64,000 nt of DNA from an uncultured Pseudomonadales bacterium (GTDB lineage: Bacteria > Patescibacteriota > Microgenomatia > UBA1400 > Chazhemtobacteraceae). The notes under the pieces were generated by a model, which saw nothing but the letters and a program-made list of their open reading frames with translations, was not told where the DNA came from and did no database searches. A program made the translations under genes and the position numbers. Every line of letters starts with the position of its first letter. Position 1 is the first letter of the stretch. This document shows positions 7,499-54,699 of the stretch, one piece after another. The stretch lies in NCBI GenBank assembly GCA_964618725.1, contig CAZUBK010000004.1:79485-143484 (forward strand), given 5' to 3'.

Positions 7499-7719
7499 TA
7501 ACGACTCAATATATCCCCCACCAATCTTCTTGTCAAAGCCATAAAGAGTGGACTAAATACCACCTATCTATCAACTAGTGCATCAACTCATGCCTAAAAA
7601 CGTTTCCACAAAATCACTCCGACAAAGTCGAAACAGACAACAACTACATCTTGACGACCAAACGACTCTTCTGTTATTTTCTACATCAGACCTTGTATAT
7701 ATCAAGACGATAACTCAAA

Positions 7720-7806
7720 AGCAGTTATCGGCGAAGATATAACAGGAAGCGCAGTGCTTCGGACAAGTAACGATTAGTTACTCCGAATAAGCGAGCAAGC
7801 TGTTAT
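7720..7806 (+). repeat. copy A of a ~90-nt structured repeat family (closing stem ATAACAG/CTGTTAT)
   Basis: Shares TTATCGGCG...TATAAsAGGAAGCGCAG...GAGCAAG with copies at 15450 and 52043. It has an internal hairpin AGTAAC-GATT-AGTTACT. Confidence 0.5.
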
Positions 7807-7811
7807 CAGAT

Positions 7812-8027
7812 ATGTCCAATAGAAAAGATCTCGATCTAAGTAACCTCCCCGACCTCCTCACCGTCCGTGAAGTCGCCGACATCCTTCGAGTCTCCATTCT
7901 CACCATCAAGCGCTGGGGCAAACGAGGCAAACTACCTGCCATCAGAATCAACTCCCGGGGTGACCGCCGCTATCGCAAGGAACAAGTTCTCTATCTTCTC
8001 GGTATTGACCCCAATATGCAGAGGTAA
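7812..8027 (+). CDS. excisionase/MerR-like helix-turn-helix DNA-binding protein (71 aa)
   Basis: LLTVREVADILRVSILTIKRWGKRGKLPAIRINSRGDRRYRKEQV is paralogous to the N-terminus of the 2460-aa protein at 24704. Confidence 0.6.
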   Translation: MSNRKDLDLSNLPDLLTVREVADILRVSILTIKRWGKRGKLPAIRINSRGDRRYRKEQVLYLLGIDPNMQR

Positions 8028-15320: not shown

Positions 15321-15392
15321 GTCGGGGTGCTGAGAATTGAACTCAATCTACACGCACCCGAAGCGTGCGTACTACCGTCATACTCCACCCCG
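15321..15392 (-). tRNA. tRNA-Pro (anticodon CGG)
   Basis: Minus strand CGGGGTG...TTCGGGT anticodon loop...TTGAG-TTCAATT-CTCAG T-arm...CACCCCG-A. Cloverleaf folded by hand; C1-G72 and A73 are typical of tRNA-Pro. No CCA is encoded. Confidence 0.7.
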
Positions 15393-15449
15393 AGAAACTC
15401 ATTTTATAACAAACAATAGTGAACCCACCAGGCTCACTATTGCTTAGGC

Positions 15450-15524
15450 TATAACAGGAAGCACAGTAAAACAAGCAAAATAGTCATAAACTATGCTTAG
15501 TGAAGCGAGCAAGCTCTTACCCTG
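15450..15524 (+). repeat. copy B of the ~90-nt structured repeat family
   Basis: TATAACAGGAAGCACAG...GAAGCGAGCAAGCTCTTACCCTG; the closing stem is only CAGG/CCTG. Confidence 0.4.
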
Positions 15525-15535
15525 CCCCTTTCCCC

Positions 15536-15564
15536 TTGACAAATTGGTCCACCTATAGTATACT
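15536..15564 (+). promoter_or_regulatory. consensus sigma70 promoter (TTGACA - 17 nt - TATACT)
   Basis: Exact -35 and near-consensus -10 with 17-nt spacing. No CDS lies downstream before the terminator at 15743. Confidence 0.6.
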
Positions 15565-15570
15565 GACCGC

Positions 15571-15770
15571 CTTCTTAACAAAAAGGATGTTTCAACACGC
15601 TGGGCGCTCGCCCAGGTAAAATCCCAAGGAGACGCCGCGTGAAGACGAAACGACCTCTCTAGGGCACGGGACTGCGTGAGTCCTAAACAGAGTACGCAAC
15701 GCGTCTCTGCACGGCCATACCCCGTGCCCAAAATAACAAATACCCCCAGCTAAAGCCGGGGGTTATTTTT
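15571..15770 (+). ncRNA. candidate ~200-nt structured small RNA of unknown family
   Basis: Bounded by the consensus promoter and an intrinsic terminator. It contains a perfect 9-bp long-range stem, GGGCACGGG at 15662-15670 pairing CCCGTGCCC at 15721-15729, and a CTGGGC-GCTC-GCCCAG hairpin. No convincing ORF. Confidence 0.4.
15743..15770. terminator. intrinsic terminator (CCCCCAGC-TAAA-GCCGGGGG plus TTATTTTT), usable on both strands
   Basis: Hairpin plus T-run on the + strand. The reverse complement is followed by TATTTGTTATTTT and sits downstream of ndk on the minus strand. Confidence 0.65.
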
Positions 15771-15796
15771 GATGGTAAAATATCTCTGTCTACTCC

Positions 15797-15870
15797 GCTC
15801 TTGTAGCTCAACTGGATAGAGCAGGCCCGTCCTAAGGGCAAGGTTGGAGGTTCAAGTCCCCCCAAGAGCA
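15797..15870 (+). tRNA. tRNA-Arg (anticodon CCU)
   Basis: GCTCTTG-TA-GCTC-AACTGGATA-GAGC...loop GTCCTAA...T-arm GGAGG-TTCAAGT-CCCCC...CAAGAGC-A. There is one A·C mismatch in the T-stem. Confidence 0.7.
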
Positions 15871-15875
15871 CCTTT

Positions 15876-16352
15876 CTACCTCAAATCCTCATCTGGGTAA
15901 ACCAGCACCTCACTCGCCGACTTGTACTCATGGATCTCCTTGCTCGAAAATACCAGCGCCAATTCCCGCTCGGCTGCCTCTAATGAGTCTGATGCATGAA
16001 TCAAGTTGTAAACCTGACTCATCCCAAAGTCTCCTCTAATCGATCCTGCCTCTGCCTCACGCGCCTTAGTGATCCCAACAATCTTTCTCACTGCTGCTAC
16101 CGCTTCAAGTCCTTCCCATACCATGGCTACCACCGGTGTCCAACCAATATACGCCTTTAAATTTGGGAAGAAACTTTTATCTTTGTGCTCCACATACCAT
16201 TGATCCAGGGTTTCGTCAGAAAGTGCCACCATCTTAAGGCCAATCAATTTCAGCCCCTTACGCTCAAATCTACTCATTATCTCACCCACCAATCCTCGCT
16301 GTAGTCCATCAGGTTTGACCAACACAACAGTTCTTTCCATCATATTACCCAT
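15876..16352 (-). CDS. ndk: nucleoside diphosphate kinase
   Basis: ...ERTVVLVKPDGLQRGLVGEIMSRFERKGLKLIGLKM...NLIHASDS... Start chosen at MGNMMERT, which has an AAGGTGG SD; the ORF track extends further upstream. Confidence 0.9.
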   Translation of the reverse strand: MGNMMERTVVLVKPDGLQRGLVGEIMSRFERKGLKLIGLKMVALSDETLDQWYVEHKDKSFFPNLKAYIGWTPVVAMVWEGLEAVAAVRKIVGITKAREAEAGSIRGDFGMSQVYNLIHASDSLEAAERELALVFSSKEIHEYKSASEVLVYPDEDLR

Positions 16353-16496
16353 TTTACCCCACCTTGATCTCAAAAACCATTCTCCCCAACATGTCTCATT
16401 CGACCCTTGACAAGGAGTAACAAAATAAAATAAAATATAAGATTGTAAGTTCTTTTATATCTTAACTTAGTGCACGAGCACAAAGGAGTTTCTCTC

Positions 16497-17700: not shown

Positions 17701-17767
17701 GTATTTCAAGACTAATGAGACACGTACATCATTGACATGCAATTCATAATGACTTATCATCTTTATT

Positions 17768-18013
17768 ATGTTAACTACATATACCACCATTACACCCAAT
17801 TTCCAGCTTCATATTCCTGTCAGCATCCGTAAGACCATCGGACTCAAAAAACACGGCAAAGCCATCATTAAGGCAGATCAGGGCAACATCGTCATTCAAC
17901 CAATGAAAGAGTCCCCCGTCCTCAAACTTGCAGGAACTCTTAAAGCTTTTAAACCATTAAAAAAGATTGATCTAGATAATATCAGAGACTATATCGATTA
18001 CTCCCGTGCCTAA
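17768..18013 (+). CDS. AbrB/MazE/SpoVT-family antitoxin (VapB-like)
   Basis: ...HIPVSIRKTIGLKKHGKAIIKADQGNIVIQP... swapped-hairpin motif. It overlaps the PIN gene by 8 nt. Confidence 0.65.
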   Translation: MLTTYTTITPNFQLHIPVSIRKTIGLKKHGKAIIKADQGNIVIQPMKESPVLKLAGTLKAFKPLKKIDLDNIRDYIDYSRA

Positions 18014-51943: not shown

Positions 51944-52042
51944 TTAAGTTTCTCCTTTTTAAGATATAAATGTTCGAATACGCAAATTATACTTCATAGT
52001 AGTGATAAGTCAATCTCATAACCAGACGATAGTAAGATTATT

Positions 52043-52142
52043 ATCGGCGCAGTTATAAGAGGAAGCGCAGGACATCATTTCGATAATACATATTATCGAA
52101 GGTAAGGATGAGCAAGTCGTAAATCCTTTAGGGCTCTTATAA
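52043..52142 (+). repeat. copy C of the ~90-nt structured repeat family (closing stem TTATAAGAG/CTCTTATAA)
   Basis: Shares TTATCGGCGCAG...TTATAAGAGGAAGCGCAG...GAGCAAG with copy A. It has an internal hairpin CGATAAT-ACAT-ATTATCG. Confidence 0.5.
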
Positions 52143-54582: not shown

Positions 54583-54699
54583 GCGTAAAACGTGGCAAGC
54601 CAAGCTACATTTTACCATGTTATTATAACCACCAATAGTGAAAATTAAGCTCTTATCCCCCTACGCACCTTTCCATTCATGTTCTTAAGGAGACCTCCC

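Follow-up and report, generated by a model that had tools for sequence, protein, structure and literature searches.

The question raised by this locus is whether a near-consensus promoter with no gene behind it, followed after ~200 nt by an intrinsic terminator, drives a small RNA of its own. Bacteria of the CPR (Patescibacteria) are without most of the classical regulators and, to our knowledge, almost nothing is known about their regulatory RNAs; a strongly expressed orphan small RNA would, if true, provide a starting point, although a single sequence that has no relatives is too little to carry that. The locus was analyzed within the 64-kb stretch of DNA that contains it (hereafter the window), and its features are collected in Table 1. 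Judged from its sequence, the candidate is a plausible lineage-specific small-RNA transcription unit with a putative function; we tentatively give a probability of about 0.45 to the reading in which it is a stand-alone, lineage-specific unit on the + strand that yields a discrete ~200-nt noncoding RNA ending at the terminator T1. Of the proposal made in the preliminary description, a candidate novel small RNA, the promoter, the lack of an ORF, the usable terminator and the lack of an Rfam family all hold; no homologue was found, and the fold is better on the opposite strand.

Table 1. Positions of the features discussed (window coordinates unless a locus of a relative, numbered with L, is named)
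Feature	Position	Strand	Description
Sigma-70-type promoter	15536–15564	+	TTGACA, 17-nt spacer, TATACT; 11/12 consensus bases
Predicted noncoding transcript, ~200 nt	15571–15771	+	No ORF; fold z −4.1; no Rfam match
Hairpin domain 1	15584–15656	Unassigned	On the − strand a 32-bp rod, then CCUUUUUGUU (15586–15577)
Putative mini-ORF	15626–15662	+	SD-like AAGGAG, 7-nt spacer, GTG, 7-codon ORF (MKTKRPL, stop); read from sequence
Hairpin domain 2	15662–15729	Unassigned	9-bp closing helix around GGACU/AGUCC and CAGAG-ACGC/GCGU-CUCUG hairpins
Bidirectional intrinsic terminator T1	15742–15771	Both	T-runs on each strand
Extended −10 box TGGTAAAAT, putative own promoter of tRNA-Arg	15773–15781	+	15 nt ahead of the tRNA
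tRNA-Arg(CCU)	15797–15872	+	Rfam and ARAGORN
ndk	15876–16373	−	Pfam NDK, 7.9e-49; convergent with the candidate
Putative remnant of a dead tRNA-Pro copy	15523–15551	−	5′ bases 1–12 (15535–15523) and decayed box TGGACCAAT (15551–15543)
Intact tRNA-Pro(CGG)	15321–15392	−	Rfam and ARAGORN
Decayed copy of the ~110-nt, TA-flanked, two-hairpin repeat	15404–15522	+	Covariance model R2, 41 bits, E about 1e-5
Better repeat copies	7697–7808; 52016–52124	+	Within the window
Internally deleted repeat remnant	About 54620–54656	+	Within the window
Repeat copies elsewhere	L007 4578–4690; L007 5176–5294; L010 4972–5078; L065–L184	−; +; +; 	More than 110 copies in L065–L184

The orphan promoter and its predicted transcript

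The −35 element of the promoter occupies 15536–15541 and the −10 element 15559–15564. It had been described as being as good as any in the window, and it is indeed the joint best, sharing its score with nine other sites. Ten sites with at least 11/12 consensus bases are present in the window, against the 0.9 ± 0.7 expected from Markov-shuffled sequence; at the shuffled-sequence rate, such a site is expected only ~0.004 times in a 300-bp stretch. The remaining nine sites all face ORFs, at distances of 7–160 nt, leaving the site at 15536–15564 as the sole orphan. The enrichment of these sites, together with the position of the other nine before ORFs, indicates that they are real promoters in this organism. 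The arrangement looked for in a small-RNA gene, a functional promoter with nothing coding behind it, is thus present, and this promoter is the strongest evidence for the candidate: a chance origin is very unlikely. That a consensus promoter has stayed intact in a decaying neighborhood (see below) also argues that the + strand is transcribed.

Among the nine ORF-facing promoters, one precedes a 46-aa ORF that has its own terminator and two are of the leaderless type (17732–17768 on the + strand and 7536–7498 on the − strand). At both, the start codon lies just 7–9 nt past the −10 element, so the mRNAs would be leaderless; one of them encodes a protein of 901 aa for which Pfam gave no match. Direct reading of this genome reveals sigma-70-like promoters, leaderless starts and TGGTAAAAT, a promoter box for tRNA genes.

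Behind the orphan promoter there is neither an ORF of at least 20 aa nor a start codon at leaderless distance, in agreement with the earlier statement that nothing coding follows. RNA polymerase would start ~7 nt past TATACT, near 15571, and transcribe ~200 noncoding nucleotides before stopping in the T-run of T1, a terminator shared with the convergent ndk gene; both ends of this transcript are predicted. The tRNA-Arg gene downstream would be transcribed from its own TGGTAAAAT promoter. The RNA would be expected to accumulate and may act in trans, most likely by base pairing through the single-stranded stretches CCUUCUU (15570–15576) and CCUCUCU (15654–15660), which resemble the anti-Shine–Dalgarno seeds of small RNAs that occlude ribosome-binding sites. 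A scan for duplexes with 111 translation-start regions, by a crude method, gave nothing above the shuffled controls.

Relatives of the candidate were sought at several levels. Searches with blastn and nhmmer revealed no homologue in 63 ndk-syntenic loci or in ~120 metagenome loci, a single-sequence covariance model (R1) run over 0.96 Mb of CPR DNA matched only the candidate itself, and the exact domain-2 22-mer had no match in IMG/VR. The conservation or covariation that would mark a small-RNA gene was consequently not found in the syntenic loci and ~1 Mb of CPR DNA. In the protein and genome collections, the nearest Ndk proteins share at most 74–76% identity with that of the window, and the best matches belong to Woesebacteria MAGs. 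The source is an uncultured CPR bacterium belonging to the Woesebacteria/Microgenomates group. Other assemblies of the locus consist of two short Logan contigs from one run, both identical to the window, and offer no strain variation. Within the window, the 200-nt part has no paralogue and no significant similarity to the tRNAs; the same search exposed the repeat element considered below.

Folding of the two strands and the competing explanations

The + strand of the candidate folds more stably than shuffled sequences (z = −3.7, or −4.1 when the terminator is included), and to this extent the structured transcript of the preliminary description stands; the reverse complement of 15571–15738, however, folds better still, at −74.1 kcal/mol (z = −5.5, MFE frequency 0.11) in comparison with −58.0 kcal/mol (z = −3.7) for the + strand. 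The gap in energy arises in the helices UAGAGAGG/CCUUUUUG and CUUGGG/CCUGGG, where G·U pairs on the − strand correspond to A·C on the + strand, and nine G·U pairs lengthen the − strand helices. The + strand helices are nearly all pure Watson–Crick, which suits young or DNA-level palindromes.

The same tendency is seen module by module. Domain 1 has an energy of −37.0 kcal/mol (z = −4.65) on the − strand versus −25.6 kcal/mol (z = −2.2) on the + strand, where six of its G·U pairs become A·C mismatches. In domain 2, the perfect 9-bp long-range helix noted previously, GGGCACGGG/CCCGTGCCC, is present (15662–15670 paired with 15721–15729), as are the other hairpins; its closing helix and main hairpins are Watson–Crick and so carry no clear strand information. 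The GC-rich T1 hairpin, ACCCCCAGC-TAAA-GCCGGGGGT at 15742–15763 followed by TATTTTTG, reaches −13.7 kcal/mol on the + strand, on which A15748 and C15757 are mismatched, and −18.2 kcal/mol on the − strand, on which they are replaced by a G·U pair; a consensus terminator scan reported this hairpin for the − strand only. T1 is therefore best described as a bidirectional terminator that works better for the convergent ndk gene. For the candidate, the hairpin with UUAUUUUU lies 178 nt past the −10 element and provides a same-strand intrinsic terminator at the distance usual for a small RNA; what had been called a strong terminator ~200 nt downstream is thus a usable hairpin and T-run ~180 nt on, weakened on the + strand by its one A·C mismatch.

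As all three hairpin modules are stabler on the − strand, the fold does not constitute independent evidence for a + strand RNA. Neither does it prove an RNA on the − strand: that strand is G- and T-rich at the candidate and G-rich across the window, and a biased mutation pattern could suffice to give rise to G·U pairs, making the strand asymmetry weak evidence. GC skew is uniformly negative throughout the window (−0.08 to −0.44 in 2-kb windows over 1–64000), which places the whole window on one replichore with an unusually strong strand asymmetry.

The surroundings of the candidate bear on how its hairpins should be read. The tRNA-Pro/tRNA-Arg locus is a young rearrangement hotspot. Relatives keep the order ndk, tRNA-Pro(CGG), tRNA-Arg(CCU), with the two tRNA genes adjacent in L001, L002, L003, L005 and L009, and separated by unrelated inserts in L007, L008, L010 and L012. 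At this hotspot, the insert of L012 (5120–5824) is an ORF flanked by AAGTNACYTAAGT tandem repeats, and those of L007 (4815–5175) and L010 (4628–4920) have in common a fragment of tRNA-Arg preceded by a small ORF rich in Cys (CGWCGQ...HKDCF). In the window, the ndk stop codon lies 3 nt from the antisense tRNA-Arg gene (in the stretch 15876–15742 of the − strand), and ndk transcripts must cross that gene and its promoter head-on before they meet T1, an arrangement suggestive of a recent inversion. On the other side of the candidate, its position and partial identity to the intact genes in L007, L150, L154 and L169 lead us to infer that 15523–15551 is the remnant of a dead tRNA-Pro copy. As this putative copy, with its repeat insert, stands just upstream, the candidate promoter overlaps the copy's old upstream region, its −35 and −10 elements coinciding with the former leader and promoter region.

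From these observations follows the most serious alternative, possible though somewhat unlikely, that no RNA gene as such exists here: the hairpins would be features of the − strand, comprising T1 and domain 1 as ndk terminators in tandem together with debris left by rearrangement in a tRNA hotspot, and any + strand transcript would be a by-product, its apparent structure owed solely to the ability of terminator palindromes to fold on either strand. The greater stability of T1, domain 1 and domain 2 on the − strand favors it, as do the variability of the locus among relatives and its content of a decayed repeat and a tRNA fragment. Domain 1, moreover, lies at the site that the ndk terminator takes up in relatives, directly before the tRNA-Pro promoter box: with CCUUUUUGUU it sits on the − strand ~25 nt ahead of the decayed TGGTAAAAT-like box (TGGACCAAT), and this is the spot at which L007 and L010 carry their ndk terminator, ahead of the promoter for tRNA-Pro. 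An old ndk terminator, read in antisense, therefore probably makes up part of the structured transcript. The by-product explanation nevertheless leaves an intact 11/12 promoter unaccounted for, where ~0.004 would be expected by chance; domain 2 is not a terminator, as it lacks a U-tract on the − strand; and the genome-wide excess of G over C and of T over A on the − strand would itself generate G·U pairs. A stand-alone + strand small RNA can accommodate the same hairpins, in that domain 1 and T1 probably derive from opposite-strand terminators and did not evolve for the + strand RNA.

A second alternative, in our estimate quite unlikely, makes the 15536 promoter serve tRNA-Arg(CCU) and the 200 nt a ribosome-dependent attenuator leader, in which translation of the predicted 7-codon ORF (15639–15662) would decide whether T1 forms. 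The order of promoter, mini-ORF, terminator and same-strand gene is the expected one, and the spacing of AAGGAG, 7 nt and GTG looks genuine, agreeing with that of real genes in the window; by a rough estimate, such a site would occur by chance in 200 nt with a probability of ~0.01. The 5′ arm of T1 could form a helix with GCUGGG (15599–15604). This putative antiterminator, however, lies at a distance of 140 nt and comprises just 6 bp, and the MKTKRPL ORF contains no AGG codon (the peptide has a K-x-K motif). The tRNA-Arg gene also has a canonical TGGTAAAAT box past T1. The same box lies upstream of tRNA-Ala on the − strand of the window (54617–54609) and 14–30 nt ahead of many tRNA genes in the CPR loci that were retrieved (including the flanks in L073, L088, L093, L154 and L169), and TGGTAAAAT, with no −35 element, appears from this distribution to act as the promoter for tRNA genes in these CPR bacteria. 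With its own box between T1 and the gene, tRNA-Arg does not need the 15536–15564 promoter. Mutually exclusive terminator and antiterminator structures, and a downstream gene dependent on the promoter, were accordingly not found at this locus. We know of no precedent for leader-peptide control of a tRNA gene. The boldest proposal, a new and highly expressed CPR riboregulator, whether a Shine–Dalgarno/7-codon-ORF/terminator leader that would gate read-through into tRNA-Arg(CCU) or a small RNA born in a tRNA hotspot remodeled by the element, we consider a long shot.

It is similarly improbable that the functional RNA lies on the − strand, either as a structured continuation of the 3′ UTR of ndk or as a small RNA from the weak promoter TAGACA-16-AAAAAT (15792–15765). 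The fold of that strand is the better and better-defined one (z = −5.5, MFE frequency 0.11), its helices extended by nine G·U pairs; its sole promoter candidate, however, scores 9/12, T1 should halt ndk transcripts ahead of the region, and no conservation was found in the loci searched. Finally, a divergent known RNA (6S, SRP, tmRNA, RNase P or a riboswitch) or a real gene on the antisense strand is very improbable and excluded as far as the tools (Rfam, ARAGORN, Pfam) allow: although a 6S RNA could be of this size, the A-rich 5′ and 3′ ends are unable to form the 6S closing stem, a search of Rfam 15 with both strands gave no family but only terminator-like noise, whether at the gathering score or with E values of up to 10, covariance models for SRP RNA, tmRNA, RNase P RNA, tRNA and riboswitches had no match, ARAGORN detected no tmRNA, and the 95-aa antisense ORF (15444–15731) has no Pfam match and runs through the repeat element and the tRNA fragment, so is not a gene. 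In both respects the preliminary description, which had recognized no SRP, 6S, tmRNA or RNase P elements and had dismissed the ORF, the only one to overlap the candidate, as implausible, was correct.

The adjacent tRNA-associated repeat family

What the preliminary description had missed is the repeat inserted in the putative dead tRNA-Pro copy just upstream of the candidate. It belongs to a previously uncatalogued repeat family of Microgenomates, which is a more solid and better-supported novelty than the small-RNA candidate. Most copies score 70–120 bits with R2, the upstream copy being a decayed one, and all four copies in the window are on one strand. The core pattern was matched in at least 120 metagenome contigs and in none of the viral contigs of IMG/VR; Rfam 15 had no match to the copy in 7690–7830 or to the 3′ half of the copy at 15404–15522. 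A literature search on CPR noncoding RNAs or repeats returned nothing relevant; a paper dealing with group I introns of Patescibacteria tRNAs (PMC13011429) bears on neither the candidate nor the repeat.

The repeat has sharp ends (TA/TATWYC ... GAGCAAGCTCT/TA, with the slashes marking the boundaries), two hairpin domains and a nearly invariant core, TATAAGAGGAAGCGCAG ... GAGCAAGCTCTTA. Covariation in its helices, Pa/Pb and P1/P2, is very strong: 28 of 35 pairs have double changes, and pairing extends to 92.6% of cells, versus 32–45% in slid controls; G·U pairs are very rare. Neither the counts of G·U versus A·C nor the strand-wise energies decide on which strand the repeat is read. At 58 of 74 loci (58:16), the C-rich strand carries the repeat as written, with GC skew only a proxy for the direction of replication, and there is no bias relative to the direction of coding (36:38). 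No recurrent protein family occurs within 3.5 kb of 106 repeat copies and no transposase was found nearby, and beside the copies in the window the only Pfam match is to HTH_17. The latter is a 71-aa HTH_17/MerR-type (excisionase-like) ORF (7812–8027, + strand) that begins 4 nt past a repeat copy and has no Shine–Dalgarno sequence.

Genes for tRNAs often harbor the repeat, inserted in either orientation at a TA that lies in the D-loop or the anticodon loop or at position 9/10 (L007 4500–4815, L010 4920–5165, and L073, L081, L120, L150, L154, L169, L181 and L183). TA, often as TTA or CTA, is present at both junctions, which fits a 2-bp duplication and a target-plus-end motif alike. Next to each disrupted tRNA copy, in tandem, there is always an intact one for the same tRNA, the two sharing direct repeats of 9–48 nt. 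In L007, the layout is promoter, leader, tRNA-Pro bases 1–10, element, tRNA-Pro 3′ remnant, duplicated leader and intact tRNA-Pro; with a single promoter and the leader duplicated, the element would be transcribed within the tRNA-Pro precursor, framed by the halves of the acceptor stem. The window has a decayed version of this dead-plus-live architecture, in which 15523–15535 would be what remains of bases 1–12, and the putative −10 element of its intact tRNA-Pro (TGTTATAAA, 15414–15406 on the − strand), read from the sequence, is supplied by the end of the repeat. A widespread structured repeat that is absent from Rfam scans thus leaves tandems of a dead and a live tRNA copy, which can cause errors of annotation and breaks in assemblies; in one case, an assembly covering this locus stops inside tRNA-Pro.

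Comparison with known systems

Intergenic genes for trans-acting small RNAs run from a sigma-70 promoter to an intrinsic terminator, as exemplified by RsaE/RoxS of the Firmicutes with their C/U-rich seeds. The candidate resembles this type in its own strong promoter, its length within 100–250 nt and its lack of an ORF, in stem-loops parted by single-stranded C/U-rich stretches, and in sharing a Rho-independent terminator with a convergent gene. It differs in having no homologues in the collections searched and no target found in the duplex scan, in seeds that are guesses, in being known from sequence alone, and in a fold no better than that of the opposite strand. With 6S RNA (RF00013) it shares a length of ~200 nt and a position behind a strong housekeeping promoter; unlike 6S RNA, the predicted MFE structure has two separate hairpin domains and unpaired A-rich ends, with no 5′/3′ closing stem or central bubble, and RF00013 gave no match at E up to 10. 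Leader-peptide attenuators of the trp/his and erm/cat types likewise combine a promoter, a mini-ORF preceded by a Shine–Dalgarno sequence in a structured leader, a terminator and a same-strand gene; in contrast to them, the gene downstream of the candidate is a tRNA with its own promoter, and there is neither codon logic nor a convincing antiterminator.

The closest analogues of the repeat are the miniature elements derived from IS200/IS605 (PATEs), the REP/BIME elements and the Correia elements of Neisseria. Like these, it is short (~110 nt), multi-copy and intergenic, with hairpins that reach its ends, sharp boundaries with TA on each side, almost purely Watson–Crick helices and an orientation biased with respect to GC skew. 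As in IS200/IS605 miniatures specifically, terminal or subterminal hairpins occur with no terminal inverted repeats, and the orientation is biased relative to replication (58/74, with GC skew as proxy); a Y1 (HUH) transposase, or full-length copies with the same ends, was not found within 3.5 kb of 106 copies. In addition to having no transposase nearby, the repeat departs from all of these elements in targeting the loops of tRNA genes, the tRNA copy that it strikes always standing in tandem with an intact one. Also unlike them, its internal loops (GAAGCGCAG / GAGCAAG) are nearly invariant, and from their sequences these loops look more like a functional RNA or a protein-binding site.
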